A stretch of DNA of 64,000 nucleotides. It comes from Cyanobacteria bacterium P01_F01_bin.150. GTDB lineage: Bacteria > Cyanobacteriota > Cyanobacteriia > CAKZMO01. The notes under the pieces are model-generated. The model was not told the DNA's origin and searched no databases. It saw nothing but the letters and a program-made list of their open reading frames with translations. Below, piece by piece: positions 22,997-49,968 of the stretch. The DNA lies in NCBI GenBank assembly GCA_039189765.1, contig JBCCYL010000023.1:1-64000 (forward strand), read 5' to 3'. The position numbers and the translations under genes were made by a program. How positions within the stretch are numbered: the stretch's first letter is position 1; every line of letters starts with the position of its first letter.

Positions 22997-23069
22997 ATAC
23001 AAGGTGTTTTCTACCCTATGCAAGGTGTCTGATTCAGTGTTCCCGGTCTTATCTCTCAAATTGCAATTT

Positions 23070-23151: not shown

Positions 23152-23384
23152 AATTTAGGCGAGTTTCGTTGTGAAGTAGGCCCTAATTGACAATGGAAAC
23201 GCAAGCGTTACTGCTTTCTAGCTGAGTCGGTATTTTTAGGGCGGGGGGCGGGGCAAGAACCAGGGTATCCCGTCCATTTTTGCATTTTCTAGAAAATGCT
23301 TGGAGTATCCATTGCTGACGATTGCCCGATGGACGTTAGTATAATGAGTGTTCATATTCTCATTCCCAACGGGGGCAACGCGTC

Positions 23385-24269: not shown

Positions 24270-24284
24270 AGTCAACAAAGCAAC

Positions 24285-24869: not shown

Positions 24870-25060
24870 TATGTTAACGACGAAACCAAAACTTGAATAC
24901 ATACCACAATACTTTAACGCCATCACGCCAATTGATTTTCTTTCCGGCTTCGTATAAACGACCGTAATAAATATGAGATGCCTGTCTCATATATCCGCCA
25001 GAGACGACGGGAAAGAGCTACTTTCATCGTAAACTCTACTTCAAAAGTTAAACCGGATTG

Positions 25061-27586: not shown

Positions 27587-27637
27587 GTTTCACACCGATT
27601 CATCTTGCAGTTTTTAGAGGTTTACCTAGCTAATCAC

Positions 27638-29020: not shown

Positions 29021-29228
29021 TGAACGCTTAACTCCTTTGACTTGGCTGAAGGTAACTATTACGCTTTGTTGACTAAATAATTAGTCAGGGCTAGATCTGA
29101 TGGCCTCACATATTTTTTGAAGGAAAGCTAACTTCAATATGAATTTTTACCGTGTGCAAGACTTAACTATCAACTATCTAGCGTCCACATTTTTTTCATT
29201 GGTACCAACATGATATAGCGAATACGGA

Positions 29229-32200: not shown

Positions 32201-32381
32201 GATTTTTTCTCAAGCCCTTAACAAATGCTTCGGTGCTACCTTGCCCAGAGGATGAACCAATTTCTAAAACAGTCTTGACACTCGGGTCACAAGCAAATCG
32301 CTGGATCGCCTGATAAAAATCATCATTTTTAATTTCAGGCGCAATAATATTATTAAGTTCTGAGTCAGATACTGAATTCAT
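29229..32381 (-). CDS. Multidomain glycosyltransferase: methyltransferase-like, GT-A-like and GT4 (GT-B) domains plus coiled coil
   Basis: VLEIGSSSG, WQIDVDE, YPSLYEGFGLPIAEAMACGCPV; C-terminal TSKFWRLR; ATG 32381 preferred over 32450. Confidence 0.85.
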   Translation of the reverse strand: MNSVSDSELNNIIAPEIKNDDFYQAIQRFACDPSVKTVLEIGSSSGQGSTEAFVKGLRKNPNSPQLFCMEVSKPRFESLKSHYESDSFVHCYNVSSVDLEAFPDPLQVEQFYHSKQTPLNQYPVEQVVGWLQQDVNYVRNSGVSANGIQLIKKERNIERFDLVLIDGSEFTGEVELEQVYGSKFILLDDICTYKNYNSHHRLLNDPNYVLIEQNIALRNGYSIFERVEQYPILRSPQPSQSDMPIHFFTIVLNGEPFIRYHLDVLKQLPFRWHWHIVEGVAALKHDTAWSVDLGGQVIDDVHHQGRSHDGTKEYLDELAEAYPDSISIYRKPEGEFWDGKREMVNAPLQSIQEGCLLWQIDVDELWTVEQINTLWQMFVDRPDKTAAYFWCNYFVGEQLIISSRNCYAQNPAQEWLRVWRYEPGMKWAAHEPPKLVRVLPNGDEEDVAGVKPFLHAETLRANLVFQHFAYVTEMQLKFKESYYGYSDAVAQWKTLQQQQDFPVLLRDYFGWVDDDTLVEPAQTSGIVPLLAREPESDNWTFLTFEEMQHRSQTIKKPFPQIVIDGVFFQFGESGIAQVWRSLMKEWVKTGFAEHLVILDRDGTAPRIPGLRYRPVRAYDYDKTAADAEMLQEICDEKGADLFISSYYTTPLTTPSVFMAYDMIPEVIGADLTQTGWKEKHLGIVHASSYITISQSTAKDLCQFFPAIDPETVTVAHCGIKQVFSPASPDEIQQVRAKIGVDKPYFLMVGDRTGVNGYKNAVFFFRALSQLLNKSEFAVVCVGGQPQLEPELQTLSDGIETVVIGLSDEDLKAAYSGAIALVYPSLYEGFGLPIAEAMACGCPVITGRHSSIPEVGGDAVIYVDTSSINELIDALYKVQHPEIRQHFVQAGFEQCAKFSWENMAKIVSQVLLDTGKQLENQSPKVGSYIWETFRKLQRDGNAIASDISSNAGNDSHSNVSTIRATDNSLLERIQSLEGQLQEKANTLQHLEGRLQEKEGRTQELETQLSKASSQLLDAEGTIAAMKTSKFWRLRSASFKIRRALGLPTSHE

Positions 32382-32406
32382 AGGTTCAAGGATTGGGACT
32401 TGAGTA

Positions 32407-33279
32407 CTAGAAATTGGCAGGGTTGCCCAATTCCCCCCTAAGTTTCTCATACTTGGTGCACAATTCTTGATGTTCTGCTACGAGAGCTTCGTACTGTGCT
32501 TTCACTGCATCCCTCTCAGCTTCAGCCGATGCGAACCACTCCCGTAAATTGACTACAAATTCTTGAAACTTGAGCAATCTTCGATTAACCCAATATGATT
32601 CCTTGTAGAGGGGAAAATTATTTTGAATGCGATAGGACTCTGGAACAGCTAGACGGATTTGACTAGATAGGCCACCCGCATAATAAGAGGCCAACGTTCG
32701 AGGATAGTGACAGAGTTTTACAGACTCACTGTAGACCATGCGTAAGAACCATTCATAATCGGATGAAATACGATAGCTTTCATTGAACATGCCCACTCGT
32801 GACGAAAACAAGTTAGCTCTGGCTAAACTTGCTTGATGAGGAAGGCACCCGCAGATCATTTCATCAGGAATACTTTCGGGAGGTGGTGGCTCAACCAAAA
32901 TTGTTTTCCCAGATGGATAACGTACTTCCAAGTTTCCGTATAGGAAGTCACAAGTTGGATGCTGAGATAGAAACGATGCAGCATCTTCAATAGCTCTTTC
33001 ATCCTGAAGATAATCATCAGCATTGAGAAATCCGATAAAGTCTCCGGCTGCATATCGAATCCCTTTATTCATCGCTTCATAAATTCCTCCATCAGGTTCA
33101 CTAATAAAGCAACTAATGCGGTGAGCATACTTTTGAATAATTTCTTTGGTGCCGTCGGTGGAATTTCCATCGACAACGATATATTCAGTATTAGGAAAGG
33201 TTTGATCAACGACACTCTTAATCGCTGTTTCTATAAAATCCTCTGCATTTCTACATACAGTGATAATCGAAATCTTCAC
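32407..33279 (-). CDS. GT2 family glycosyltransferase (WcaE-like)
   Basis: KISIITVCRN, VVDGNSTDGT, SEPDGGIYEAMNKG, FLNADD; GGAG before GTG 33279. Confidence 0.9.
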   Translation of the reverse strand: MKISIITVCRNAEDFIETAIKSVVDQTFPNTEYIVVDGNSTDGTKEIIQKYAHRISCFISEPDGGIYEAMNKGIRYAAGDFIGFLNADDYLQDERAIEDAASFLSQHPTCDFLYGNLEVRYPSGKTILVEPPPPESIPDEMICGCLPHQASLARANLFSSRVGMFNESYRISSDYEWFLRMVYSESVKLCHYPRTLASYYAGGLSSQIRLAVPESYRIQNNFPLYKESYWVNRRLLKFQEFVVNLREWFASAEAERDAVKAQYEALVAEHQELCTKYEKLRGELGNPANF

Positions 33280-33703
33280 AGGATAGTTAATCTCCAGTAG
33301 CAAGAGGAACAGAGCAATCATCACTAGAAGAGGTCTGAAAAGTTTTTAACTGTCAAAAGTTTTTGTCAGTGATACATGGATCCGCTCACACGTATTAATA
33401 CGAAGACAGGCCCAATACCAGCAAAGTTTAGATATGCGATACCAATCTATCTGCTACCAATATCACCAACCCTTCTCAGATATCTTCTTTATACCGAAAG
33501 TTGACCTTACGTCATATCTCTAATCTACACCAAAACCTATTTTTTCTTTAAGCACGGACCAAAGCCTTTGCCATTTCCTGGATTTACTACTTTGCACAGA
33601 TGCTATGGTACTAACGGGCTTCTACTTTTACATTTCTATTTTTATTTCGCCCTTTAGTGCTTTCTCCTCATGTAGCAATAATCGATAACGTCCCTAATTG
33701 CGC

Positions 33704-33952: not shown

Positions 33953-35839
33953 TTACTCAACACTCTCTAAATATATTTGCTCTGACAAATCCTTTCGAAT
34001 AAAAATTCTCAAATTTGGGATATCAGCCTTTATCTCAGCATAACAAGGATTTATCTTGCAAAAATTTGGCATGGTAACGTGTTGTTCATAAGCCTCTTTC
34101 GCCTTCAACAACTGTGGATAGGAGGCAGATGTTGAATCAATCGATTGAGTAGGAACCGTCTTGTTTGTCATGACAACCACGTCATGTTGAGCCTCCCATT
34201 CGCTAAAAAATCCCCAGAATAGTGTTATTGTCCATTTCTCGTTAGAGGATACAAAAAACAGGGATGGATCATATGTAATATTGATGTGCCGATCTAGTTG
34301 TATTGAAATTTTATTAAATAAGCCAATTAAGTAGTCATATTCTGCTTTCTTAGATTTAAATTCATATGTTTCTGAACGTTGTGAGTACTGAGTAAGCTTA
34401 TGCTTAGTCTCAGCTAGCATATATGATGTAGCTGCTATTTGAAGGATGATAAATAAAATAAAAACAGCAAATTTTATGTTGCTTACCGATTTATTTTTTT
34501 TAAGGTATAAATATGATTCTAATTCATAGATTTTTAGTAATCCTATGATAAAAAATACGATGCCAATATGGAGATAAAATCCCCAGAGTCTATCTACCAA
34601 GATAATGATTGGTAAAATAGAAAAAGATGACAATGTGACCAACACTAGACCGGGATACTGAGTCGGATTTGCTAAGAATTTTAACCTTGATTTTATTAGC
34701 GATATTAAAATTAAAAGAATACCCAATATGAAAATAATAAATAGAATGGCGGAGGGCACCTCAGACCAATCATCAAGAATAAATTCTGCCCAAGATAAAA
34801 TACTAACTCTGCTATCATCTGCTCCATGCCCAGTACTTAAGAATGTCCATTGCAACCAGGCTGAAGTTCCCGTAGGTATCTTTAAGACAGCAACGGGAAC
34901 CGCTATAGCAAATCCAAATATAAAGACTCCGATAGTTTTAAGCCATGTTGATGGAAACCTCAAGATTTTATTTTTATCCATGAGGTGGGTAAGGCCAGGG
35001 CTTAGTATGCAAAATACTCCAACTAGAATTGGGAGAAGTGTTGTTAATGTTTCTTTCGATAAATGATTTTCAATGCTGGGGATTTTTGTGCGATATTCTA
35101 GCAAACCATATGCAATCTCATAGATTCCAAACCCTATAATAACAACTGGCAGTAAGAATTTATTGATATTTCTATTGCCGCAGATATTTGGAAATGACAC
35201 CCATTGATTGAGCTTAAACTGTTGGATTAAAGATAATCCTATGATGAAGGGTAATGATGTAAAAACAGAAATTTTTGAGCCAAATGCTAAGCCGAAAAAT
35301 ATCCAGTAGTATCCAAATTTAAAGGAGTGTTTAAATGCCAGTATAAGGAATATAGAAAAAAACAAAAGTAATATTGGTTCAGGCTTAGGCATCGTTGCAT
35401 AGTAGGATGTTGCCGGAAGAACCGTTAAAGTCCACAATCCTATTCCTCGAACGATCCAAGATTTGAGAAAATACAACGATAATATGATGTAAGCAGCTAG
35501 TTGGAATATTACCTGGGCCATCCGAGTTGCATAGATTTGCCCACTTGCGCCAAAGAGACGCTCTGGGATAGCGGCAATAAGGGCGGATGCATTCCATAAA
35601 ATCCTCCCATATCGATGATCGTCACCATCAATAACGGTATCAATCCAACTGTTCAAGTCTGATGGGTGGAGTAGTCTGTCCACACCGTCAAACGTAATGA
35701 TTTCATCCATGAACAAGACATAGCGACCATGTAGTAAATCCGAGTTAGCCTGATGGGATAGATACAGAGATACGATTAAAGCACCTGCAAAAAGTGCCAC
35801 TCCAAGGAACCGATCAATTTTAGACAGTGAGTTGGTCAT
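33953..35839 (-). CDS. Polytopic membrane protein, putative GT-C fold glycosyltransferase (AT-rich)
   Basis: Many TM segments, acidic DE motif after TM1 (FMDE), RYG, PKPEP, GSK. Confidence 0.6.
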   Translation of the reverse strand: MTNSLSKIDRFLGVALFAGALIVSLYLSHQANSDLLHGRYVLFMDEIITFDGVDRLLHPSDLNSWIDTVIDGDDHRYGRILWNASALIAAIPERLFGASGQIYATRMAQVIFQLAAYIILSLYFLKSWIVRGIGLWTLTVLPATSYYATMPKPEPILLLFFSIFLILAFKHSFKFGYYWIFFGLAFGSKISVFTSLPFIIGLSLIQQFKLNQWVSFPNICGNRNINKFLLPVVIIGFGIYEIAYGLLEYRTKIPSIENHLSKETLTTLLPILVGVFCILSPGLTHLMDKNKILRFPSTWLKTIGVFIFGFAIAVPVAVLKIPTGTSAWLQWTFLSTGHGADDSRVSILSWAEFILDDWSEVPSAILFIIFILGILLILISLIKSRLKFLANPTQYPGLVLVTLSSFSILPIIILVDRLWGFYLHIGIVFFIIGLLKIYELESYLYLKKNKSVSNIKFAVFILFIILQIAATSYMLAETKHKLTQYSQRSETYEFKSKKAEYDYLIGLFNKISIQLDRHINITYDPSLFFVSSNEKWTITLFWGFFSEWEAQHDVVVMTNKTVPTQSIDSTSASYPQLLKAKEAYEQHVTMPNFCKINPCYAEIKADIPNLRIFIRKDLSEQIYLESVE

Positions 35840-36028
35840 TCTACTTGCATGGTCTCCTGAAGAAAAGCAAAAATCTTGTAAAGTAGTCCAAACTGAAGTC
35901 TGAAGCAGTATTGACTGTTCTTAGCATCAGCAGTTCTCCGATGACGCAAGAAACTGTCCTGCGTTTTTTGCATCTCAAATATGATATTAATTAAGAGCAA
36001 TATTACTCTTTAAAGCGCAAGTATAGTC

Positions 36029-38185
36029 TTGACTATGAGCTTTTGGTTGGCCCTTCAATCTAATATCCCTATCACTGTTGAAGAAAAGCGATCGCTTCGA
36101 ACCCTTCATTTCAGCCCTTTCTTCGTGATGGGATTAGGCATTCGTTTGCTCTTAATCTTAATAGCGTTTCCAAAGACACAGCAAGATTGGTTTCTACCCT
36201 TTATCTCTACCCCACTTGCCTCCAAAATCCCAGCACTTTTGAATCCTTGGGGCACGTATCTCAGTTCTGGGGGAAATGCGTTGTCATTTCCCTATGGGAT
36301 CATCATGTATTTGGCTTATTTACCTTTAACAGGATTGGGATGGCTGGTTGATCAAGGGTTACACATCAATTGGTTGGCGAAAGTCGGTTTTGGCCTGACA
36401 TCGCTACTGTTTGATTATGGGGTACTGATTGGCATTGCTTGCTTGGCTCGCAAGTATTCGGAAGGGCTTTTACTACTTACATACTGGTGCTCTCCAATTG
36501 TCATCTTCATTCTTTACTGGCATGGGCAATTAGACGTACTGCCCGTGCTGCTGCTTGTTTGGGGGCTGTGCCTGCTTCAATGGAATAGCCCAGTTGCAGG
36601 AGGTATTGCTTTAGGGTTTGCGATTTCTAGCAAGTTCAGCATGCTGATTGCGATACCCTTTATCCTAATTTATCTTTATCGCAATCTACGACTACGGGAA
36701 CAGCTTTGGACCCTAGCTGGAACAACTCTCATAACGGTTCTATTAACCATTGTCCCTTTTTTACAATCACCTGCATTCGTTGAGATGGTGATGCAATCGC
36801 GCGAAATACAGCGCATTTATACCGTTCATTTGAGCTATGGTGATGATTTAAAATTATTTTTGTTGCCGTTTATTTACATTCTTTCTCTCTATCTTGTTTG
36901 GCGCCTAAAACGCATTACTCTTGACCTGTTTATTATTTCAGTTGGGTTGGGTTTCTTTTCCCTGCTTTTGCTGCTACCGCCGGGGGCAGGGTGGTTCTTA
37001 TGGATTATGCCCTTCTTAACGTTTTATCAGCTACGGTCACGGGGTGACTATTTGTGGATTACCTTCCCATTTTTTGGCCTGTACCTCAGTTATGGCCTCT
37101 TGTATTCCACGGGTGCAGATATTCCACTGCTAAACCTTAATTTAAGCGATTCTCTGGCTATCAATACTGTTTTATCGACTTCGATCAATCGCTCTATCTT
37201 ATTCACTCTGTTGCAAGCATTCGGGCTGCTGATTTGCGCTCGGATGTATGCATTTGGCATACGGCGTAATAACTACTATCGAATGAGTCGCCGACCGCTT
37301 GCCATTGGAATCAGCGGTGATTCGGGCTCTGGCAAGGATACTCTCGTTCAAGGGATTGCAGACATATTGGGCACAAACGCAATCAGCCCTGTTTCAGGTG
37401 ATGACTATCACAAGTGGGAGCGAAATCATCCGATGTGGTCGGCACGAACTCACCTTAATCCCAATGCAAATAATCTTTCGCGTCTTACTCAAGACATCTC
37501 TGTTCTATTAGATGGTCAGTTCATCTGGAAGCGAGAGTACGACCATTCAACCGGAAAATTCACGAACCCGATAAAAATACCAAGTCGTGATTTTGTTATC
37601 GTTAGCGGTCTGCATACGCTGTATCTCAAGAGACTTAGGGAGCAACTGGATCTGAAAATTTTCCTTGATATTGATGAGGATTTACGGATTCACTGGAAAG
37701 CGAAGCGTGATCAGATAGACAGAGGACACAACCAGGCAGATGTGGCTGTTGCGATCGCCCAGCGCCAGCCAGATAGTCAGCAATTTATTCATAGTCAATC
37801 GCGCTATGCCGATCTGATTTTTAAGTTAGCTCCCGTCAATCCTAATTATCTGGAGGCTTATGGGCGATCGCCGCGATTAAAGCTCTTTGTACAGATGGCA
37901 AATGGATTTTTTCATGAAAGCCTCGTACATAATCTTGTTGCTTTGTGCGGGATGCATGTTGATGTTGAGCAGTCTGAACACTTAGACTTCATTCATCTTT
38001 GTATTGAAGGCGACGCTGATAAAGATGACATCTCAGAAATTGCTAGACTCTTGATTCCAAATTTAGATGACTTGGTCGTTAGGCAGCCAAATTGGTATGA
38101 GGGATGTTCTGGTTTAATGCAGGTTATTGTTCTGGCTCATATCTCAGATCGTCTACACCAAGGGAGAAACTACCGCCATGCTTAA
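36029..38185 (+). CDS. Fusion: GT-C-like polytopic membrane domain plus C-terminal phosphoribulokinase/uridine kinase family domain
   Basis: FPYG, DYG, WHGQLD..P, SSK in the TM part; GISGDSGSGKDT, GDDYH, NPNANN, GLHTLY, WK.KRD..DRGH. Confidence 0.8.
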   Translation: MTMSFWLALQSNIPITVEEKRSLRTLHFSPFFVMGLGIRLLLILIAFPKTQQDWFLPFISTPLASKIPALLNPWGTYLSSGGNALSFPYGIIMYLAYLPLTGLGWLVDQGLHINWLAKVGFGLTSLLFDYGVLIGIACLARKYSEGLLLLTYWCSPIVIFILYWHGQLDVLPVLLLVWGLCLLQWNSPVAGGIALGFAISSKFSMLIAIPFILIYLYRNLRLREQLWTLAGTTLITVLLTIVPFLQSPAFVEMVMQSREIQRIYTVHLSYGDDLKLFLLPFIYILSLYLVWRLKRITLDLFIISVGLGFFSLLLLLPPGAGWFLWIMPFLTFYQLRSRGDYLWITFPFFGLYLSYGLLYSTGADIPLLNLNLSDSLAINTVLSTSINRSILFTLLQAFGLLICARMYAFGIRRNNYYRMSRRPLAIGISGDSGSGKDTLVQGIADILGTNAISPVSGDDYHKWERNHPMWSARTHLNPNANNLSRLTQDISVLLDGQFIWKREYDHSTGKFTNPIKIPSRDFVIVSGLHTLYLKRLREQLDLKIFLDIDEDLRIHWKAKRDQIDRGHNQADVAVAIAQRQPDSQQFIHSQSRYADLIFKLAPVNPNYLEAYGRSPRLKLFVQMANGFFHESLVHNLVALCGMHVDVEQSEHLDFIHLCIEGDADKDDISEIARLLIPNLDDLVVRQPNWYEGCSGLMQVIVLAHISDRLHQGRNYRHA

Positions 38186-38960
38186 ACAACTTAATGGCGA
38201 CAAATCATCATTGACTAGACCCGATGCGGTTCTGTTTGATACGGACAACACGCTTTACGCATATCCTCCTGCCAAAAAAAAGGCAGATCGTGCGGTAGAA
38301 GAGAAGGCTGGTAACTTGCTGGGTATCACGCCAGAAGTATTTCGAATGGCCTATAAACAAGCAAGGCGTGAAATTAAAGACCAGTTAGGGCATACGGCCA
38401 GTAGCCATAGCCGCTTACTCTACTTCCAGAGAATGCTAGAACTGCTTGGATTTAAGGCACAACTGCTTATTGCCCTTGACTTAGAGCAAACTTTCTGGCG
38501 TACGTTTCTGGCTAACGCGCCATTGTTTCCAGGGGTTATGGACGTATTGGATGATTTACGCAGTAACAATATTCCGATTGCAATCGTCACCGATCTAACC
38601 GCCCATATTCAACTTCGGAAGCTGACCTATTTTCATCTTGAAGAAACCTTTGATGCGGTGGTGACATCTGAGGAAGTGGGAGCTGATAAACCTGATCCAC
38701 GAAATTTTGAACTAGTCCTTAAAAAGTTGAGCATAAGCTCTTATACTCAAATCTGGATGGTGGGAGATAACCCCGCAACAGACATCGTAGGGGGACGGCA
38801 TATTAATGCAGTCACATTTCAGAAAATTCATTCTGGTGTCCGCGTAGGAACAGGCAATGAAACGCCTGACTTTACATTTGAAAATTTTAATGAGTTAGGA
38901 CGATGCATTATGGATGTATTGTCTAGCACCGATTCTCAAAAGAAGGAACTTGCAAGATAA
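38178..38960 (+). CDS. HAD family hydrolase (phosphatase)
   Basis: FDTDNTLY, IVTD, DKPDP, MVGDN..TDI; ATG overlaps the upstream gene. Confidence 0.88.
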   Translation: MLKQLNGDKSSLTRPDAVLFDTDNTLYAYPPAKKKADRAVEEKAGNLLGITPEVFRMAYKQARREIKDQLGHTASSHSRLLYFQRMLELLGFKAQLLIALDLEQTFWRTFLANAPLFPGVMDVLDDLRSNNIPIAIVTDLTAHIQLRKLTYFHLEETFDAVVTSEEVGADKPDPRNFELVLKKLSISSYTQIWMVGDNPATDIVGGRHINAVTFQKIHSGVRVGTGNETPDFTFENFNELGRCIMDVLSSTDSQKKELAR

Positions 38961-39040
38961 GGGGATTCGTTTCAAAGTGAAACAAACTCAACGGTAGTGG
39001 AGGCGCTCCGCGTCCCCACTACGCGCCTAAAGTTGATATT
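38961..39040 (+). repeat. ~80-bp structured dispersed repeat
   Basis: GGGATTCGTTTCAAAGTGAAAC..AACGGTAGTGG..GCGCTCCGCG..CCACTACGCGCCTAAAGTTGATA. Confidence 0.8.
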
Positions 39041-39073
39041 CCAAGATAATAGCGATGTTAGTAATCGTGAATG

Positions 39074-39661
39074 CTAAAGTATCCATCGCTCAGGCATTTT
39101 GGTACAAACTGCATCCATAATCATGTCTTGCTTTGTCAGCTCTAACTGTAAAGACTGGAGCATTTCTGGTGGATGGCTCTGTAGCTCAGGGGAGACTAAA
39201 CATAGACGGAAGCCTGCGTCTTTAAGACGCTCATAGTCTTGCTTGGTAAGCGGAAATCGAGTAAATACATCAACCCATATCCATTGCACCATTCCCGCCA
39301 GGGTTAACGCAGTTTCAATCGACTCATATTCAGACACTCTGACCGCACATCGGGATTCCCCTAAGCGGGCAGTCTTAATCAGAAAAGGAAAGGACTGATC
39401 CAGAAAAAAGAAATCTTGGATATTATGCTTGTCCATTAACGCTAGCAGTCGGTCTTCCAGTCCCTCTTCTTTTACGTTTAAGATAATTAATCCATGCTGA
39501 TAGCCCATTAACCATTCTTCCAGCGCGATCGCCTCCACAAACGGGTCGTGATGAACAACTAGCTTATCCCCATAGCTGCGAATATCAATTTCTACACCCC
39601 ATTCGGGTCTGGTGTCTTTGAGCAAATCTAGAGTATTACGTCGATGATGAATAATAAGCAT
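39074..39661 (-). CDS. Glycerophosphodiester phosphodiesterase (GDPD/PI-PLC-like) family protein
   Basis: HRRN, GVEIDIRS, VVHHDP, LNVKE, VCTK. Confidence 0.8.
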   Translation of the reverse strand: MLIIHHRRNTLDLLKDTRPEWGVEIDIRSYGDKLVVHHDPFVEAIALEEWLMGYQHGLIILNVKEEGLEDRLLALMDKHNIQDFFFLDQSFPFLIKTARLGESRCAVRVSEYESIETALTLAGMVQWIWVDVFTRFPLTKQDYERLKDAGFRLCLVSPELQSHPPEMLQSLQLELTKQDMIMDAVCTKMPERWIL

Positions 39662-39766
39662 AGGTTGGCCACGAATGGAATGTCATATACTGTTGATTGG
39701 CTCATATATTGAGGTACTCTACACCCCAATATCTTGTTAAATTCTTCTTAAACCTTGGATTGAGAA

Positions 39767-40486
39767 TTAACGGCTCTCTATAAGCTGTAGGCGGCGACGC
39801 AATTCCCAGGTAAAGTCAATTGTACGTTTAATGAACTTTAGCTTAGCTTTCCAATTAATATTCCATCGAGAAATTCCGTGCGCTCGTTCCCCAAAACGAA
39901 CCTCAAATCGAATAATTTTAAACTTACTTTTGAGGGCCAGATAATAGCAATACAAGTCAAGGGAAAAATCATAAGGAGGATCCTGCCAACGGTTAAAAAA
40001 GCTAGCTGAGAAAAGATTAGGCTGGGCATTAATTTCCCATAGTGGAACCCGTAAAACTATCGTTTCAAATATAGCCATCCCAATGGTAAAAAATACGTCA
40101 CTCAATGGACGCCCTTTTCGAGAGCCTTTGACATAAGTTTGCTCAGGATCTGCACTTTTTTCAAGCAGCCGTAATCCATCTAAAACATCTTTTGGGTCAG
40201 TCTGCATATCGGCATGAGTCCAACCTAAAAACCGAGAGTTAGCAGCTTTTAGCCCTGCTAAAATTCCATATCCGTAGCCCTGATTAACCTCAACAATTAC
40301 GGCCCTAGCAAAAGGGTAACTTGGCAACAGGTCCGCAAGCACAACCTGCGTATCGTCCGTCGAACCATTATCAACCAAGATGACTTCAACATCATCCCTA
40401 TTCATCACCTGGGCAAAACGTTCCAGGATTAAAGGGATGTTTGGAGCTTCGTTGTAACATGGCAGCACAAGGGACAGCGTTTTCAT
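39767..40486 (-). CDS. GT2 polyprenol-phosphate glycosyltransferase (DPM1/GtrB-like)
   Basis: LSLVLPCYNE, VDNGSTDDT, NQGYGYGI, HADMQTDP, R.HG.S.W. Confidence 0.85.
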   Translation of the reverse strand: MKTLSLVLPCYNEAPNIPLILERFAQVMNRDDVEVILVDNGSTDDTQVVLADLLPSYPFARAVIVEVNQGYGYGILAGLKAANSRFLGWTHADMQTDPKDVLDGLRLLEKSADPEQTYVKGSRKGRPLSDVFFTIGMAIFETIVLRVPLWEINAQPNLFSASFFNRWQDPPYDFSLDLYCYYLALKSKFKIIRFEVRFGERAHGISRWNINWKAKLKFIKRTIDFTWELRRRLQLIESR

Positions 40487-40554
40487 GCTGATTAAAAGGT
40501 TATAGATGCTAAAGATCAAGATGTGAGTAGCATAGCATCCGTTTGGCCTCGTTT

Positions 40555-40980
40555 CTAAGGACGATATTTTTGAGAGATATTCCGAGCATTCGGAGCCTTG
40601 AAGACAAGCAGCTTCATCCCCAAAAAATTGAGTAAGGCTGAGATGGAAGTGGAAACTAAAAATGCAATATTGATGCGAAATGAAAGACTAGTGGGCAGTA
40701 GCGACAGCATGTAAGCATTAACGCCAACGTTTACCACCAAGTTAGTTCCATAAACGGCAATAAATCGAAGAGCCTGTCTAATATTGGCAGATCCCGCTGA
40801 GAAGGTCCATGTGCGATTGACTTGATATGCGTAAGCCGTGCCGCATAGAAAACTGATTGCCTTGGCAAAAGATGGTGGCAACCAGAATAAAAGAGTTTTG
40901 TAGACCAATAAGTCAATAAGAACAGTACTGCCTCCTGTTAGGAGAAAGCGAAATAGCTGGGTGCGGGTTGATCTTGCCAT
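40555..40980 (-). CDS. GtrA family flippase
   Basis: RFLLTGG, NRTWTF, four TM segments, NFLGMK..VF. Confidence 0.9.
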   Translation of the reverse strand: MARSTRTQLFRFLLTGGSTVLIDLLVYKTLLFWLPPSFAKAISFLCGTAYAYQVNRTWTFSAGSANIRQALRFIAVYGTNLVVNVGVNAYMLSLLPTSLSFRINIAFLVSTSISALLNFLGMKLLVFKAPNARNISQKYRP

Positions 40981-41016
40981 TGGTCAGAGCATCTGCAAAT
41001 AAGGAAAGTCAGCGGT

Positions 41017-42675
41017 CTAAGATAGGGAGGGAGTAAGACGACTGGGGCGCATGGGTTCTAGGGCTGGCTGGCTCAGATTTGTTTTCTCTGAAGCATGCCA
41101 ACGGTCGCCCTCCCACCGATAGGGATGGCTGTCCCATTTATGAAAGCAAGATTGCCAGTACTCAAACGTTTTCAGGTCACTGGGTGTTCCCCAACAGAGA
41201 TAATGATCAATCTCAAAAGTGACGCACTGGTAGCCGAGGGCGATCGCATCTTCAATGCAGCTATCAACATAGAACTCACCGTTTACGCGGCCATCTCGCT
41301 CAATCATCCGCTGGGCCGCAGCCTTAAAAATCTCTGTTGACCGGAAGGTAAAGGTACCTATGATGATAGGATCAGTCGCAGGGTCAGCTAACGGCTGTTT
41401 AACCGACACCCCTGTCACCCTATCACCCTCCGTTTTAACCCAGCCGTACATCTCTGGATGCTGAACTGCACCAGGATGACCACGCGTTACCCAGACAATG
41501 CAATCGACCTCTGGCCTATTGACGACCTGGGAAAATTGTTCTGGGTCAAATAAAACGCCATGATCGCAAGCGCTAATAGTTAAAGGCGCGGCATTGTCAA
41601 TTTGATCGAGGGCCGCTAAGCAAGTCCGGGCTTGACCATCGGTCACAGCATCCAGCAGTGTAAAGGTGGGGTCAGTAAACTGTTCCTTAAGGATTCGGGT
41701 CAAGCCTTCGTTCGTTGCAGTGTGTTCTTTTAGGCAAACAAAGGCATAGTGCTGAGTTGCGGGTAAGCTATCTACAGCCTGCGCCACCATCGGCTTGACA
41801 GACACTGGAATTAATGGCTTAGGGACCGTGTAGCCTGCGTTACGGAAGCGACTGCCGTGACCAGCCATGGGAATTAAAGTCGTTCCAGGCAACGGTTGTG
41901 CTGACGACGGTACAGACGTTATCAAATCTCGAAAGGCATTGGACCAGCGCTGGTATTCTTCTAGATCCTGGGGCGTGCCCCACTGCATAAAGTGCTGTAG
42001 TTCATAGACAGAGACGGATAGTCCGGCCTGCACCATTAGGTTATAAACAACGCTGCAATAATATTCTCCTTTGACCTGAATATCCCGCTCCATCGTTTCC
42101 GTGAAAAAACGTTTTACGTAGCGCCCTTTGGCAAAATAGTAGGTGCCGCTGGAGGCAAACTCCTCCATTTTGTTATCTGTAAAGGGTTGCTTTTCCTGAA
42201 TTTCTTGCATCCACCCGTTTTCAACTCGCATAAATGCATAGTTGGTTTTTCCTAGAGAATGGGGATGAAATCCTTTATAAGCAGGCACACAGCCATCGGC
42301 TTGGCAGTCTTTGACCCACTGCTTAAAGTGATGGAAATCCCAATAGCAAGTAAAGTCGCAATAGTTAACGATGGTCGGCGTTTCATCATCGATAACATCA
42401 AACGCCTGACTTACCGCATATACGGGACCTTTCTTGTGAGGGGCGATCGGCACAATTTTTCCGGTGGGACAATACCGATACAAAATATCGGTCATTGCCG
42501 TGGTTTCCAAATGGTCTTGATTACAGATAAAAACAACATCAGTTTCCCCAGGAAACATATCCACCACATGGGCAATAATGGGCTTGCCTTCAACCTCAAT
42601 CAGCGGTTTTGGCACTGTGTAGCCTGCTCGCCGAAATCGTTCCCCAAACCCTGACATTGGAATAATAATTTTCAT
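41017..42675 (-). CDS. Tandem two-domain sugar nucleotidyltransferase
   Basis: Two IPMxGxGxRF..AGYTVPKPLI motifs, each domain with GE(Y/F)Y and WGTP.DL. Confidence 0.88.
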   Translation of the reverse strand: MKIIIPMSGFGERFRRAGYTVPKPLIEVEGKPIIAHVVDMFPGETDVVFICNQDHLETTAMTDILYRYCPTGKIVPIAPHKKGPVYAVSQAFDVIDDETPTIVNYCDFTCYWDFHHFKQWVKDCQADGCVPAYKGFHPHSLGKTNYAFMRVENGWMQEIQEKQPFTDNKMEEFASSGTYYFAKGRYVKRFFTETMERDIQVKGEYYCSVVYNLMVQAGLSVSVYELQHFMQWGTPQDLEEYQRWSNAFRDLITSVPSSAQPLPGTTLIPMAGHGSRFRNAGYTVPKPLIPVSVKPMVAQAVDSLPATQHYAFVCLKEHTATNEGLTRILKEQFTDPTFTLLDAVTDGQARTCLAALDQIDNAAPLTISACDHGVLFDPEQFSQVVNRPEVDCIVWVTRGHPGAVQHPEMYGWVKTEGDRVTGVSVKQPLADPATDPIIIGTFTFRSTEIFKAAAQRMIERDGRVNGEFYVDSCIEDAIALGYQCVTFEIDHYLCWGTPSDLKTFEYWQSCFHKWDSHPYRWEGDRWHASEKTNLSQPALEPMRPSRLTPSLS

Positions 42676-42695
42676 AGTCCCGTTATTTTTATCCG

Positions 42696-43757
42696 TTATG
42701 CGGCCATTTCCAACGCTTTACGATACTTTTCTGCATCCCAATCGGTTAGTTCTAAACATTGCTGATCCGACAGGAGATGCACATCAGTCCCACATGGCAC
42801 CCGAAGTAAGACATCTGCCTGGGCTTGTAGCATTGCTTCGGTCGCAGGGGATGCACCGTTCAACAAAATCACGCCTACCTTGGGAATAATCACGTAGGTA
42901 ATGTCTTGCTGCCACTTTTCAGACACGGTTGCCACATAGTCTGGGATGTTGTTGGTTTCAGTTGCAACAACAGGTCGTACACCACAAAATACAACATGGT
43001 CGGGATAGGCAGGATTGCATTGTGCTAGCTCAAGGGTCCGCTCATCGGTGGCGATCGCCTGAATAACGGGTGCTTTAGGTAGAAATGCACCAGGAATAGT
43101 GTCCACCACAGCCTGAAGCTGGCTTAAATCAGGCGGGGAATACGATCTGGGTTCAAGATGTAAGCGCTGAATAACTTCTGCCTGCAAAGCTTCAGCCGAT
43201 TGCAGAGTGTCACCCCCAACCACTAGTCCATGATTTTCTAGGATTAACACATCGACTCTTGCGTCACCTTTGACGGTGCGAGTATCGCCCACAACAGAGG
43301 CGATCGCCCTCGTCAAAGGTTTACCAGGTCGGCAGTAGGGAATCCACTGCCACGATAGTCCCCGTAGCTTCTCTGCCATCCTATCCTGACTGCCCATCGG
43401 TAACGTATGGGCAATAACGTCTACAGAATGGCAATGCAAAACAGCGCGATGGGGCATTAACGTATGTAGCGTCGTTTCAATGGAGGGCCGCAGGGATGAA
43501 CCAGACAATGATTTAAAGGGTCTGCTAAAGCTAGATGGACTCTCTATTTCATCCCAAATCTCTGCCAAATCTAGCGGAAGGAAAATGTCGTCAGTCAAAG
43601 CATTGGCCAACGACTTCCCTGATGCTTTAACCCATAACACTCCATATTCTTTGATAGATGTGTTGCCACCAGAGGCTTGAATTAATGACGAATCAGCCCC
43701 CATCTGAGCGGAGACTTCTCGAAGATACTGTAGATCTTCAGGCTCTTTAATATCCAT
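42696..43757 (-). CDS. Class II aldolase/adducin family protein
   Basis: GGNTS, KASG, RPSIET.LH, HCHS, LENHG. Confidence 0.85.
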   Translation of the reverse strand: MDIKEPEDLQYLREVSAQMGADSSLIQASGGNTSIKEYGVLWVKASGKSLANALTDDIFLPLDLAEIWDEIESPSSFSRPFKSLSGSSLRPSIETTLHTLMPHRAVLHCHSVDVIAHTLPMGSQDRMAEKLRGLSWQWIPYCRPGKPLTRAIASVVGDTRTVKGDARVDVLILENHGLVVGGDTLQSAEALQAEVIQRLHLEPRSYSPPDLSQLQAVVDTIPGAFLPKAPVIQAIATDERTLELAQCNPAYPDHVVFCGVRPVVATETNNIPDYVATVSEKWQQDITYVIIPKVGVILLNGASPATEAMLQAQADVLLRVPCGTDVHLLSDQQCLELTDWDAEKYRKALEMAA

Positions 43758-43852: not shown

Positions 43853-45826
43853 TTAGGCAGGATAAATGCGGAGGCGACGATTGGGTTCCTCGCCAAAACT
43901 GGATGACTTGAGTCGATAGTGCTCAATCAGTTCATGCTGCATCTTGCGGATATTGGCCGAACGGGGTAGAAGTTCCACGGGTTGTCCCTTGGGCAGGACA
44001 ATTTGTTCAACCGCCAGACGAGCTTCTTCCAAAGCTTCCAGCTCATTTTCATTACCATTTCTACTGAACAGGGTTAGGTTAATTGGCTCGTCAACTCCAC
44101 CCTCATCGATTCGTAGGATCCGCCGTAGTGCCCGAATCATCTGGGGCATATTGTTCGACTTAACGGTGTAGATCGGCAACTCCCGAACCTTTGCTAAATG
44201 ACGCAGTTTGGAGTGATTTTTGACGTGACTCCTTAGCGCCAGTACGGCATCTGCACTATCCAGATCTTTAGTCAGAACTACAGGCATTTCCAATGTTTGA
44301 ATCACTTGTTCAAGACTATGACGACTTACTGCGTAGGGATAGACATGCAGCGGCAAATCTTCGCCATTGGGTCCCATCTCTAACCCGTCTTGAGCAATGG
44401 GAGTAGAGTCTTGCTCAAGCGTTTGCCCTGTTGAAGCCTGGGATGATCGAACTGAATTTCGAGCGGCAAAGGATTCACTCAATAACTTATCAAACTGCTG
44501 ATGGGGACTAGCGTACTGGGGTGGCACCACCGCAGTAGATAACGGCACACCGTTAAACCCAGCCTGGTCAGAGGCAGGCAGAGGATTCATGCGGCCTGAA
44601 ATGCGCCAACCCTTTTTTCTTTTCGATCGTTTTCCATTAGACCAGCCCACACTTGAGGCTGGCGCAGTGGGCGGATAGGGAACATCAGGCTGCTCACGAG
44701 TGACTTCTACCTTGCCAGACTCTTTAACTGCCCGTACCTGAGGGTTAGGCAATCGCCCCCTCAACAAACTATCCACGGTATTGGACACATTATCGTGAAC
44801 CGTCCAGCGATATCGCTCCAACATTTCAATGGCAATCTCAAAAGTAGGAGGAGCCTTACGCTCTAGGACACTCTTCTGGCTACCCCGGCGGCGGGCCTCA
44901 TCATCACCGAGGGTGACAGACTGGATTCCCCCCACTAAATCCGATAGGGTTGGATTTTTAATCAGGTTTTCAATCTGGTTACCGTGGGCAGTCCCTACAA
45001 GCTGAACCCCTCGCTCGGCAATCGTACGAGCCGCTAAAGCTTCTAATTCGGTGCCAATTTCATCAATAACCACGACCTCAGGCATGTGATTTTCCACGGC
45101 CTCAATCATCACCTGATGCTGTAGCTCGGGACGGGCCACCTGCATACGACGGGCACGACCAATGGCAGGGTGGGGAATATCACCATCTCCAGCAATCTCA
45201 TTAGAGGTGTCAATGATAACGACTCGCTTGCCCAAGTCATCTGCCAAAACTCGGGCAATCTCCCGTAAGGCAGTCGTTTTACCTACGCCAGGGCGACCTA
45301 GAAGAAGGATGGACTGGCCTAGACCCACCAAATCCTGAATCATGCCGATGGTGCCAAAAATAGCCCGTCCCACTCGACACGTCAGACCAATAACCTCCCC
45401 TGCTCGGTTGCGCATGGCGCTAATTCGATGCAAGGTACGCTCAATTCCCGCCCGATTATCGCCACTAAACTGGCCAATTTGATCGACACAAGCATTTATA
45501 TCGTCTGCCGTAATCAGGGTTTCGGAAATATATTCAGCACGATCAGGAAAGCGAACTTCGGGCAGACGCCCTAAATCCATGATCACTTCGACTAAACGGT
45601 CTTTATCCGGATGGTCCACGATCGCTTTACGAATATGAGCTGGAAAAATGGCAAGCAGCTGCTCTAAGTCATCTGCAGCCACTCGCTCGACCATTTCTAA
45701 ATTGTCTAAAGGGTTATTTTCCACAGCCATCTCCGGCGTAGAATCTCCTTCAGAGTCGTTAGCAATGTTTTTTGAAAATCGAGCATCAGGGCGGGAATAG
45801 GACGAATCGTGACGGTTTAAGGCCAT
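43853..45826 (-). CDS. Ycf45-like AAA ATPase with R3H domain
   Basis: GIERTLHRISA, GRPGVGKTT, DTSNEIAGDGD, C-terminal RKMQH..FGEEPNRRLRIYP. Confidence 0.9.
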   Translation of the reverse strand: MALNRHDSSYSRPDARFSKNIANDSEGDSTPEMAVENNPLDNLEMVERVAADDLEQLLAIFPAHIRKAIVDHPDKDRLVEVIMDLGRLPEVRFPDRAEYISETLITADDINACVDQIGQFSGDNRAGIERTLHRISAMRNRAGEVIGLTCRVGRAIFGTIGMIQDLVGLGQSILLLGRPGVGKTTALREIARVLADDLGKRVVIIDTSNEIAGDGDIPHPAIGRARRMQVARPELQHQVMIEAVENHMPEVVVIDEIGTELEALAARTIAERGVQLVGTAHGNQIENLIKNPTLSDLVGGIQSVTLGDDEARRRGSQKSVLERKAPPTFEIAIEMLERYRWTVHDNVSNTVDSLLRGRLPNPQVRAVKESGKVEVTREQPDVPYPPTAPASSVGWSNGKRSKRKKGWRISGRMNPLPASDQAGFNGVPLSTAVVPPQYASPHQQFDKLLSESFAARNSVRSSQASTGQTLEQDSTPIAQDGLEMGPNGEDLPLHVYPYAVSRHSLEQVIQTLEMPVVLTKDLDSADAVLALRSHVKNHSKLRHLAKVRELPIYTVKSNNMPQMIRALRRILRIDEGGVDEPINLTLFSRNGNENELEALEEARLAVEQIVLPKGQPVELLPRSANIRKMQHELIEHYRLKSSSFGEEPNRRLRIYPA

Positions 45827-45853
45827 AAATTCAAGGACTAATAGTCGATAGAC

Positions 45854-47311: not shown

Positions 47312-47450
47312 CCTTAGCGGGTAATCACGACTCAGAACACCCATTGGGATGCCCCTTATGGTCAGTGTACTACGATCTCCAAAAGTTCTGCACGGAGGGC
47401 TTAGCATTTCGTCAAGCGTTTACCCTGGCCGTATTCCAGAATACACCGAA

Positions 47451-49841: not shown

Positions 49842-49968
49842 ATCAAACCTCTGGAACCCTGGGTGATAAGCAAACAAGGTTCCATTTTATAGGAAACATG
49901 ACAAGAACCTGACCACAACATAGAACATATCTATTGCGTAAGCCTTCTTCATAATCACTCACTCTTTA

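Follow-up and report, generated by a model that had tools for sequence, protein, structure and literature searches.

Gene content and organisation of the cassette

The window analysed here is a stretch of 64,000 nucleotides from the genome of Cyanobacteria bacterium P01_F01_bin.150 (assembly GCA_039189765.1, contig JBCCYL010000023.1, positions 1 to 64,000). Eight open reading frames (ORFs), all intact, lie between positions 33953 and 43850 (Table 1). They encode a GT-C-like glycosyltransferase domain fused to a phosphoribulokinase (PRK)-type kinase, a haloacid dehalogenase (HAD) phosphatase, a class II aldolase-fold enzyme, a tandem nucleotidyltransferase with halves NT1 and NT2, the small membrane protein GtrA, a family 2 glycosyltransferase (GT2), a 195-aa protein with the predicted fold of a glycerophosphodiester phosphodiesterase (GDPD) and a 628-aa polytopic protein. 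Seven of the eight genes form a conserved cassette and the gene for the 628-aa protein lies outside that set. The cassette of the window is split into two convergent units, with the 628-aa gene divergent from the fusion gene.

ORF and domain evidence agreed in placing the genes named in a first-pass annotation of the sequence, among them the two-domain nucleotidyltransferase, in which two PF00483 stretches were found and the halves aligned with 31% identity (E 2e-41). The same annotation had stated that the block is devoid of conventional dehydratase/epimerase genes for nucleoside diphosphate (NDP) sugars, and a domain scan detected none between 33953 and 43757; the nearest NAD-epimerase-family gene is located outside the block at 19261-20160. 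On balance, the domain content of these genes favours a cassette that makes its own sugar donor, starting from a ketose phosphate of the ribulose-5-phosphate (Ru5P) type, and that decorates a surface glycan extracytoplasmically.

Table 1. Positions of the block genes in the window and of unusual proteins in two variant loci
Feature	Locus	Positions	Strand	Evidence or remark
ArnT/PMT_2-like GT-C candidate (628 aa, polytopic)	Window	33953-35839	-	Protein atlas only
GT-C-like/PRK-type fusion (718 aa)	Window	36029-38185	+	PF00485 118.9 bits; ALG3 21.1 bits
HAD-IA phosphatase	Window	38127-38960	+	PF00702 80.7 bits
GDPD-fold phosphodiesterase (195 aa)	Window	39074-39661	-	Structure model; no Pfam or NCBIfam match
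Dpm1/GtrB-like GT2 (250 aa)	Window	39767-40519	-	PF00535 72.1 bits
GtrA small membrane protein	Window	40555-40980	-	PF04138 67.6 bits (cut-off 26.1)
Tandem nucleotidyltransferase (552 aa)	Window	41017-42675	-	Two PF00483 stretches
NT2	Window	41017-41889	-	Residues ~263-552 of the tandem nucleotidyltransferase
NT1	Window	41890-42675	-	Residues ~1-262 of the tandem nucleotidyltransferase
Class II aldolase-fold enzyme (353 aa from ATG)	Window	42696-43757	-	PF00596 64.7 bits
1293-aa protein	L107	11828-15709	-	P-loop kinase, class II aldolase-like and ribulose-phosphate 3-epimerase-like parts
470-aa protein	L106	10297-11709		No Pfam or NCBIfam match
901-aa protein	L106	13846-16551		No Pfam or NCBIfam match

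Conservation of the cassette

Metagenome contigs were scanned with an alignment of the fusion protein, which yielded 432 confirmed stretches; 80 loci were kept, many of them on short contigs, and partner genes were sought in these by tblastn with the window proteins. A scan with the single fusion sequence returned only two distant GT-C relatives of 26-28% identity. The 195-aa gene was present in 71 of the 80 loci, GT2 in 69, the HAD gene in 64, the nucleotidyltransferase in 53, the aldolase in 43 and GtrA in 37, and the R3H gene that adjoins the block in the window in 0. The usual arrangement was on one strand, mostly colinear, in the order aldolase, nucleotidyltransferase, GtrA, GT2, 195-aa gene, fusion and HAD. 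Where at least one flanking gene was available on each side (23 loci), all seven genes were found in 12 loci, six in 10 and four in 1. The association of the cassette genes is far beyond chance. Co-occurrence in other genomes, on which the first-pass annotation had made its proposal depend, was thus observed in 80 loci and on plasmids. Genes flanking the cassettes encode Polysacc_synt_2/epimerase proteins, GT4 enzymes, DegT aminotransferases, UDP-glucose dehydrogenase, ABC transporters and asparagine synthase.

Three plasmids carried the fusion at more than 90% coverage (tblastn): p5 of Azospirillum brasilense MTCC4039, a 33-kb IncR plasmid of Escherichia coli and a plasmid of Hirschia baltica ATCC 49814. 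The complete cassette was present on the A. brasilense plasmid NZ_CP032350.1 and the E. coli plasmid NZ_CP145712.1, in both cases with an additional hypothetical protein (547-586 aa). The Azospirillum cassette adjoins ABC-transporter genes, gmd, a fucose synthase gene and GT1 genes. On the E. coli plasmid the cassette and the 586-aa hypothetical protein occupy positions 6022-17325, beside an IS26 transposase gene. An identical copy of the cassette occurs on another E. coli plasmid that comes from a different host.

The 195-aa protein had no match by tblastn in 50,697 phage records. The 195-aa gene was accompanied, in a set of 35 viral contigs of which many bear giant-virus bin labels, by NT1 in 34 and NT2 in 34, by the PRK domain in 25, the aldolase in 24 and the HAD gene in 17, with the GT-C domain, GT2 and GtrA in just 2 each. 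The cassette is made up of two separable modules, a soluble donor-synthesis set and a membrane delivery set.

Among 40 cyanobacterial relatives no match was found to the membrane domain of the fusion. All matches of the fusion outside genome G000 in this set began at query residue 369 or later, that is, in the kinase only, and corresponded to PRK-sized open frames save for a few weak, partial ones. A profile of the 195-aa protein had matches with E ≤ 1e-10 in 14 of 401 genomes from the phylum, strong ones in four (G000, G382, G325 and G413). The G+C content is 0.37-0.48 over 34-44 kb of the window against approximately 0.50 in the flanks. With no match to the membrane domain in the 40 relatives, strong matches to the 195-aa profile in only four of 401 genomes and a low G+C content, the cassette is an island in the source lineage. 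It is probably horizontally mobile.

Variant cassettes and gene fusions

Variant cassettes were found in other cyanobacterial genomes. In G382 (locus L105), NT1, NT2 and GT2 form one protein of 758 aa. In G413, a cyanobacterial genome of 1.6 Mb, GT2, GtrA, the 195-aa gene and the tandem nucleotidyltransferase stand beside the 1293-aa protein of L107, which begins with a P-loop kinase, contains a segment resembling class II fructose-bisphosphate (FBP)/tagatose-bisphosphate aldolases (PF01116, E 1.3e-7) and ends in a ribulose-phosphate 3-epimerase (RPE)-like region (PF00834, 90.5 bits; PDB 2fli, 1.4e-17); approximately 600 residues in the middle are without assignment. The 1293-aa protein was considered as a fused homologue of the fusion of the window and rejected, as hhalign aligned the two over the P-loop only, with a probability of 1.8%. 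In G325 (locus L106) the 470-aa and 901-aa proteins occur among the HAD, aldolase, nucleotidyltransferase, GtrA, GT2 and 195-aa genes, and the GT-C/PRK fusion was not found there by BLAST.

The 195-aa domain was also present in 20 longer proteins, with nucleotidyltransferase Pfam domains in 6, a nucleotidyltransferase and GT61 (PF04577) in 2, GT61 alone in 5, GT87 in 1, the name of a pyrophosphorylase in 1 and no listed domain in 5. The fusions of nucleotidyltransferase to nucleotidyltransferase and GT2, of nucleotidyltransferase to GDPD-fold domain and of GDPD-fold domain to GT61 suggest that the soluble enzymes are tied to one nucleotide-sugar product.

The GT-C/PRK fusion protein and its kinase

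The N-terminal half of the fusion is a GT-C-like membrane domain (residues ~1-410), polytopic with approximately nine hydrophobic segments, and the C-terminal half (~418-718) comprises a PRK-type kinase, with PF00485 at 426-604, and a C-terminal extension. The candidates scored included 353 relatives of the fusion. Of the 120 that were listed, nearly all were of full length (about 680-740 aa), with source names that included Cyanobacteria, Pseudothioglobus, Magnetococcus, Magnetofaba, Alphaproteobacteria, Dehalococcoidia and Bryobacteraceae. When 26 relatives were aligned and compared with Pfam at E ≤ 0.001, PRK was matched by 24, GT87 by 9, ALG3 by 5 and Alg6/8 by 1. Residues D169, K202 and S204 of the membrane domain were invariant in all 26.

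The best solved relatives of the kinase were 9qkn (1.4e-42) and the cyanobacterial PRKs 6kev and 6hzk (1.1e-41); identity to 6kev, 6hzk, 9qkn and 9qko was 36-40% over approximately 185 residues, and the alignment of the C-terminal extension with 9qkn reached query residue 269 (of 311). In a pairwise alignment with 6kev, the kinase of the window keeps the P-loop Lys, the DDYH motif and the equivalents of R64, Y103, H105, R159, D160 and R164. In Chlamydomonas numbering, R64, Y103 and H105 are described by Gurrieri et al. as residues that bind the phosphate of Ru5P and are strictly conserved, and D160, R159 and R164 as belonging to the catalytic loop (bioRxiv 10.1101/422709). The retention of these residues lends support to the earlier proposal of a ketose donor built from Calvin-cycle or pentose-phosphate intermediates. 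By its residues the domain would qualify as a PRK (EC 2.7.1.19) and by curated score it does not. Catalytic and Ru5P-binding residues are thus common to it and the PRKs of cyanobacteria and plants, from which it differs in being fused to a preceding membrane domain some 410 residues long and in scoring below the curated PRK cut-off.

Most of the cyanobacterial relatives (G001-G040) possess two PRK-like genes. The kinase of the fusion, with its extension, is closest to the second, 'cyanobacteria-specific' PRK-like type represented by 9qkn and 9qko, for which no paper on function was found in a literature search.

The fusion family goes under the name 'uridine kinase' in its sources. This raises the alternative that the donor is a conventional hexose or amino sugar, with the PRK-like domain serving as a regulatory or nucleotide-binding domain or as a nucleoside kinase, and the HAD and aldolase in side roles. 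Uridine-kinase models do match the kinase (91.9 bits), and roughly one in five aligned members have a degenerate kinase site; these look in sequence like a pseudo-kinase subset whose membrane domain is unchanged. The PRK model NF005655, however, scored more than twice as high (210.6 bits), the window protein retains the Ru5P-binding residues, the kinase keeps company with the HAD, aldolase and nucleotidyltransferases even in viral contigs from which the membrane genes are missing, and the variant protein of L107 carries RPE-like and FBP-aldolase-like domains. A conventional sugar donor was therefore judged rather unlikely.

The HAD phosphatase and the aldolase-fold enzyme

For the HAD phosphatase, the best of 37 NCBIfam families matched was NF053830, ribulose 1,5-bisphosphate (RuBP) 5-phosphatase (181.3 bits, 3-231 of 234), and the next family scored 95. 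Motifs DxDxT and GDxxxD were conserved in 56 sequences.

In the aldolase-fold protein, a Zn aldolase domain at the N-terminus is followed by a C-terminal half of approximately 150 aa. Residues E94, H108, H110 and H176 were invariant in 34 sequences and, by analogy with L-fuculose-1-phosphate aldolase (FucA), are presumably the catalytic Glu and the Zn-binding His triad; with its match to PF00596, the protein has the attributes of the class II aldolase/adducin family. A profile search of the PDB ranked 3m4r first (1.5e-31), followed by FucA structures. The same order was obtained when the predicted structure (pLDDT 93.1) was aligned with VIA: 3m4r gave Z 23.9, FucA 19.7, RhaD 17.3 and AraD 15.1, the AraD structure 1jdi ranking 14th with a root mean square deviation (rmsd) of 4.6. 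AraD was absent both from the 24 NCBIfam families (E ≤ 0.01) and from the 28 PDB sequences (E ≤ 0.1) that were matched. An AraD-type epimerase was rejected as the identity of the protein, which in sequence and structure is nearer to the FucA and RhaD aldolases. Of the class II aldolase/epimerase fold first proposed, the aldolase superfamily stands and a specific identity as L-ribulose-5-phosphate 4-epimerase falls. By sequence and predicted structure, the protein is a Zn enzyme of the ketose-1-phosphate/dihydroxyacetone phosphate (DHAP) type. Aldolases differ in stereochemistry: the D-ribulose configuration results with FucA-type enzymes, L-xylulose with the RhaD type and D-xylulose with the FBP-aldolase type.

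The C-terminal half of the aldolase-fold protein (residues ~205-353, positions 42696-43300) was modelled with a pLDDT mostly above 90, and P252, D253, E343 and R346 are conserved in it. A wide structural search, which barely tested that part, gave nothing above Z 3 for it.

The pairing of the two enzymes has a counterpart in the haloarchaeal non-carboxylating pentose bisphosphate pathway, where, as described in part of the source, a HAD enzyme specific for RuBP yields ribulose-1-phosphate (Ru1P) and is encoded beside a class II, FucA-like Ru1P aldolase (PMC9700705). That pathway is catabolic and is fed by ribose-1,5-bisphosphate (R15P) isomerase; here RuBP would come from the PRK-type kinase and the product would enter glycan synthesis. 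The aldolase of the window also belongs to another subfamily, resembling 3m4r and the N-terminal part of RhaD, and has the extra C-terminal half.

The kinase, HAD and aldolase could nonetheless constitute a catabolic or salvage route (RuBP to Ru1P to DHAP and glycolaldehyde) that lies beside glycosylation genes by chance. The same three enzyme types make up the haloarchaeal pathway, and the aldolase matches a Ru1P aldolase model weakly (E 0.0058). A chance neighbourhood is very unlikely in view of the order of these genes with the nucleotidyltransferases, GT2 and GtrA, which is fixed in 80 loci and also on plasmids from three classes of bacteria, the physical fusion of the kinase to a GT-C-like domain and the location of the cassette in polysaccharide loci.

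Nucleotidyltransferases

Sequence identity indicates that NT1 and NT2 are old paralogues. The tandem protein scored 59.1 bits against PF00483, in two stretches, and both halves matched NCBIfam models of the RmlA, GlmU and AglF types, in all cases under the cut-off (best Arch_glmU, 76.7 against 292). The signature GxGxR...PKPL and a mid-domain Asp were kept in both halves across 46 sequences, so that each half has the features of an RmlA-like enzyme. Weak matches were obtained to IspD-type proteins at the N-terminus of NT1 and, for the tandem protein, to 7d72, the GMPPA/GMPPB complex. In loci L109-L112 the orthologues of NT1 and NT2 are separate genes.

Such a pair might be explained differently, as one catalytic and one regulatory nucleotidyltransferase; pairs of this kind exist, and the one in 7d72 is an example. 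The product would then be an aldopentofuranose donor, D-arabinofuranose or D-ribofuranose, with Ru1P isomerised to an aldose-1-phosphate that the catalytic nucleotidyltransferase would activate. The kinase and HAD evidence that sets the start at Ru5P applies equally to this alternative, RmlA-type enzymes favour anomeric aldose-1-phosphates, and a D-arabinofuranan occurs together with a xylulose-containing glycan in one marine bacterium, according to part of one report (PMC8707391). Three observations render it unlikely. No isomerase of the MtnA or R15P-isomerase type was detected in the cassette with Pfam or NCBIfam, both nucleotidyltransferase halves retain the catalytic signature and have orthologues of their own, and the GDPD-fold enzyme, to which they are invariably linked, would be left without a role.

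The 195-aa GDPD-fold protein

The 195-aa protein had no match in Pfam even at E ≤ 10 and none in NCBIfam, and its best match by sequence in the PDB was at E 2.1 only. Its homologues align readily (33 sequences, 43-77% identical to the window protein) and share 43 invariant columns, which include H6, R7, N9, E24, D26, R28 and H38. The family is large: a profile search of 1.84 billion cluster representatives returned 2014 with E ≤ 0.001, of which 1268 reached ≤ 1e-10 and 327 reached ≤ 1e-30.

An AlphaFold model of high confidence (pLDDT 94.4, pTM 0.90) was obtained. Foldseek gave GDPDs as the best solved structures (3ks6, E 1.9e-7, probability 1.00). On re-alignment with VIA, the first 28 rows were of GDPD fold with Z 15.2-17.2, the best being 2o55 (Z 17.2, rmsd 2.5, 186 residues aligned); 3 of these 28 are enzymes other than GDPDs, namely 7ww4 and 7wwc (a multidomain glucanase) and 9yd8 (a phospholipase D). 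Further phospholipase D and sphingomyelinase D (SMase D) entries followed at Z 12.3-13.9 and phosphatidylinositol-specific phospholipase C (PI-PLC) entries at 11.8-13.1, with generic TIM barrels lower. We take H6-R7, E24-x-D26 and H38, which stand at the expected strands, to be the GDPD catalytic His-Arg, Glu-x-Asp and His motifs. What had been annotated as a GDPD-like gene therefore has the TIM-barrel fold in the model and, on our motif assignment, the catalytic residues, without membership of the GDPD sequence family (PF03009). The protein shares its fold with the GDPD/PI-PLC/SMase D superfamily, some members of which form and open cyclic phosphates. It is smaller and is without the GDPD insertion. 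In place of a tie to glycerol-phosphate metabolism, it always shows linkage to, or fusion with, a nucleotidyltransferase or a glycosyltransferase.

Other roles are conceivable for the GDPD-fold enzyme. It could salvage a labile donor that has cyclised spontaneously, or it could uncover a phosphodiester after transfer, a role to which its direct fusions with GT61 enzymes would be suited. The latter role belongs to a further alternative, in which a ketose or alditol phosphate is linked by a phosphodiester in the style of teichoic acids, with a CDP-1-pentulose as donor and the GDPD-fold enzyme trimming or uncovering the linkage. The weak IspD-type matches of NT1 point in that direction, as does the fusion of the GDPD-fold domain to GT61-type transferases in 5 + 2 of the 20 longer proteins, and use of a non-anomeric phosphate is on record for the nucleotidyltransferases that make CDP-6-fructose (PMC10918830, in part). 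The cassette, however, contains no reductase (Pfam scan), no CDP-alcohol phosphotransferase and no LicD/TagF-type enzyme (Pfam and NCBIfam). Moreover, a GT2 of the Dpm1/GtrB type makes polyprenyl-phosphate sugars from anomeric NDP-sugars, and the motif that we associate with this type is conserved here. A phosphodiester-linked product is accordingly held to be quite unlikely.

Proposed membrane delivery

The motifs 'THADxQTD' and 'VDNGSxD' were conserved in 61 GT2 sequences, and the 'xADxQxD' segment is presumably the Dpm1/GtrB/ArnC-type motif. NCBIfam matches of GT2 were weak and far under the cut-offs (ArnC 38.8 bits, PpgS 24 bits), and at 250 aa the protein lacks the C-terminal membrane helices of GtrB. 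Divergent copies of GtrA in other loci make up family F3. The GtrA protein, the Dpm1-like GT2 and the putative GT-C domain fit the three-component logic that had been proposed for the block, a GtrA with a polyprenol-phosphate GT2 and a GT-C transferase.

The 628-aa protein had no Pfam or NCBIfam match. Its neighbours in the protein atlas were PMT_2/ArnT-type GT-C clusters (score 0.98, TM 0.52-0.59), and it is a candidate ArnT/PMT_2-like GT-C protein on this structural similarity. As a conserved member of the cassette it was rejected, with 0 of 80 fusion loci positive by tblastn. A neighbour of at least 400 aa with at least seven hydrophobic segments was found within two genes of the cassette in 16 of 23 loci; there may be flippases or polymerases among these neighbours. 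The 628-aa gene is a positional analogue of such variable large membrane proteins; its description as a second, divergent GT-C-like gene agrees with its orientation, is suggested by its atlas placement and does not extend to the conserved set.

Proposed pathway

The steps of the proposed pathway would run as follows. In the cytoplasm, the PRK-type domain would phosphorylate Ru5P, or a close ketose phosphate, at C1 to give RuBP, and the HAD enzyme would remove the distal phosphate to leave a ketose-1-phosphate, so that kinase and HAD together relocate the phosphate of Ru5P from C5 to C1. The Zn class II aldolase-fold enzyme would re-set the stereochemistry by retro-aldol and aldol chemistry or, alternatively, would rebuild a pentulose-1-phosphate from DHAP and glycolaldehyde. 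The two nucleotidyltransferases and the GDPD-fold enzyme would then convert the ketose-1-phosphate into a nucleotide-activated five-carbon sugar. Here a further step that moves the phosphate would be needed, since GT2 requires an anomeric donor and a ketose-1-phosphate is non-anomeric. The most economical route would lead from an NDP-1-ketose through a 1,2-cyclic phosphate and a ketose-2-phosphate to an NDP-2-ketose: NT1 would make the NDP-1-ketose, the GDPD-fold enzyme would form and open the cyclic phosphate and NT2 would activate the ketose-2-phosphate. It was the one scheme identified that gives a part to both nucleotidyltransferases and to the GDPD-fold enzyme invariably linked with them. 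The joint occurrence of these enzymes, and their fusion, are as this route would need. Finally, the Dpm1-like GT2 would load the sugar onto polyprenyl phosphate, GtrA would aid its passage across the membrane, and the GT-C domain, the neighbouring ArnT-like protein or both would transfer it to the polysaccharide of the adjacent ABC-transporter-type locus.

A ketose donor derived from Calvin-cycle or pentose-phosphate intermediates had been postulated in the first-pass annotation. The Ru5P-binding residues, a HAD enzyme nearest to RuBP phosphatase, the Glu/Zn site of the aldolase and the RPE-like variant all speak for that derivation; the AraD-type epimerase on which it also drew is not retained. 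The specific route with two phosphate moves, from C5 to C1 and from C1 to C2 via the cyclic phosphate, to a nucleotide-activated pentulofuranose, most plausibly xylulofuranose, is offered tentatively and is, as a whole, unlikely. Both the identity of the sugar, whether xylulose, ribulose or another pentofuranose, and the cyclic-phosphate step are what we infer.

Xylulofuranose is a candidate for the product sugar, with D-arabinofuranose and ribofuranose as alternative candidates. Xylulofuranose is known from E. coli O95, Yersinia enterocolitica O:10, Campylobacter jejuni RM1221, Eubacterium saburreum T15 and Devosia submarina, as listed in part of one report (PMC8707391). Passages of a 2019 review of E. 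coli O-antigens state that the genes for NDP-xylulofuranose or NDP-ribofuranose are not known (PMC7685785). The N-glycans of chloroviruses MT325 and TN603 also contain xylulofuranose; a 2022 review of giant-virus glycans lists the sugar, has no 'phosphoribulokinase', and gives no pathway in its passages on ribulose or on MT325 and TN603 (PMC9614988). The presence of the soluble module in contigs labelled as giant-virus fits xylulofuranose as the product. A precedent for the activation of a non-anomeric ketose phosphate is provided by the formation of CDP-6-fructose through reaction of CTP with fructose-6-phosphate, described in part of a further source (PMC10918830).

Several observations weigh against a donor pathway of this kind. 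Scores fell short of curated cut-offs at three points, namely ALG3 for the membrane domain of the fusion (cut-off 23.6), NF005655 for its kinase (cut-off 236; NF011997 scored 29.5 against a cut-off of 362) and NF053830 for the HAD enzyme (cut-off 330), which therefore lies outside the curated equivalog. The P-loop Lys was lost in 5 of the 26 aligned fusion proteins and the other kinase residues were retained in 17-21 only; this degeneracy in part of the family implies that some members can do without kinase activity. The usual substrates of RmlA-like nucleotidyltransferases are anomeric aldose-1-phosphates, and the non-anomeric ketose-1-phosphate would oblige the pathway to include the extra step. 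In five loci, L108-L112 (genomes G252, G224, G249, G064 and G259), a 195-aa-like gene occurs with separate NT1 and NT2 genes and a HAD of another subfamily, the beta-phosphoglucomutase type; kinase and aldolase genes were not found by BLAST within 20 kb, nor were GtrA and GT-C genes found in these loci. WavE-family (PF07507) genes adjoin the module in L109 and L110, with a GT8 gene also in L109. The composition of these five loci suggests that the core of two nucleotidyltransferases and GDPD-fold enzyme can run from other precursors.

The distribution of the cassette in E. coli is a further difficulty. According to passages of the 2019 review, O95 and O97 contain xylulofuranose and yet their O-antigen clusters are without precursor genes (PMC7685785). 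Of 5426 complete E. coli genomes, only 2 were found to have the cassette, in each case plasmid-borne and with 100% identity; megablast and blastn with the plasmid cassette work at the DNA level, and divergent homologues could escape them. This rarity argues against the cassette as a general route to xylulofuranose in that species. The source genome, finally, is metagenome-assembled (10.6 Mb in 350 contigs), with a contamination of 4.7%.

Comparison with described systems

Extracytoplasmic glycosylation by three components is known from GtrA/GtrB/GtrC of Shigella and Salmonella phages, from ArnC/ArnT and from mycobacterial PpgS/Rv3632/Rv3779. The cassette resembles these systems in that a GtrA-family protein adjoins a GT2 that is Dpm1-like and a putative GT-C-type domain, and the type-specific GtrC beside conserved GtrA and GtrB recalls the variable large membrane protein beside the core of the cassette. 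Gtr systems draw on the housekeeping pool of UDP-glucose, whereas the cassette brings five or six dedicated donor-synthesis activities. It departs from them also in having a kinase fused to its GT-C domain and a GT2 without the membrane helices of GtrB, and no prophage context was seen. A housekeeping donor pool and a prophage context, which characterise Gtr systems, were thus both wanting, dedicated donor genes being present and phage genes not being found in the window.

A parallel in logic is offered by the NDP-heptose pathway, which comprises GmhA, the kinase HldE or HddA, the HAD phosphatase GmhB and the nucleotidyltransferase HldE or HddC. There too a bisphosphate formed by a kinase loses its distal phosphate to a HAD enzyme, and the phosphate that is left is activated by a nucleotidyltransferase. 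The kinases of the heptose pathway are GHMP or ribokinase-like, in contrast to the PRK/uridine-kinase P-loop type of the cassette, which also has two nucleotidyltransferases, the GDPD-fold and class II aldolase-fold enzymes and a predicted start from a pentulose phosphate. In the decaprenyl-phospho-arabinose pathway of Corynebacteriales, phosphoribosyl pyrophosphate and a UbiA-type transferase are used and epimerisation takes place on the lipid. This pathway resembles the one proposed in having a lipid-linked pentofuranose that derives from a pentose phosphate, a phosphatase step and GT-C transferases that act outside the membrane; it differs in that the cassette uses nucleotidyltransferases and GT2 and has no DprE-like oxidoreductases.

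Because curated thresholds or defining features were missed in each case, the cassette is not a plain Gtr system, nor are its enzymes plain members of the PRK, RuBP phosphatase, AraD or GDPD families. The interpretation in the first-pass annotation is partly supported. The cassette probably works like a Gtr/Arn-type three-component system and, unlike those systems, would be fed by a dedicated and undescribed donor pathway from a pentulose phosphate. A full-text search, with most subscription journals outside its coverage, found no paper on the cassette, on a PRK-GT-C fusion or on an NDP-pentulose pathway. The cassette is widespread in bacteria, on plasmids and in giant-virus contigs and yet unstudied; the 195-aa family alone counts the 2014 cluster representatives given above. 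Should the proposal hold, it could close a gap in the activation of neutral ketoses and rare pentofuranoses for transfer and would directly connect an intermediate of the Calvin cycle or pentose-phosphate pathway with surface-glycan variation, which bears on recognition by phages and grazers in marine cyanobacteria and other plankton. A pentulofuranose route, if correct, would be a new way of activating ketoses in cells and giant viruses and would supply the missing biosynthesis of xylulofuranose. Confirmation of the role given to the 195-aa protein would add a new enzymatic use of the GDPD fold.

Genomic setting of the island

To the left of the block, positions 19261-33324 constitute an ABC-transporter-type polysaccharide locus, which probably makes the acceptor glycan. 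Besides the NAD-epimerase-family gene mentioned above, its genes encode the ATPase of an ABC transporter, a formyltransferase, a hexapeptide transferase, a GT4 protein of 1073 aa, a GT2 of 305 aa and two methyltransferases. One of these has 841 aa, and the other is an FkbM enzyme of 460 aa with a coiled-coil tail that resembles a chain terminator. On the right (43853-49877) the island is directly adjoined by genes for an R3H/AAA/PTPase-domain protein, LdpA and PurL, which indicates that the contig is cyanobacterial chromosome.

No tRNA genes were present in the window and no island-flanking repeats were found there. Promoter and terminator signals in 35700-39200 did not exceed those in shuffled sequences. 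Alignments of homologues suggested probable shorter starts for the aldolase (ATG 43757), GT2 (ATG 40486) and the HAD gene (ATG 38178). An alternative start of the aldolase ORF lies at GTG 43850, and the homologues favour the ATG. Initiation of the HAD gene at its shorter start results in an 8-nt overlap with the fusion gene.

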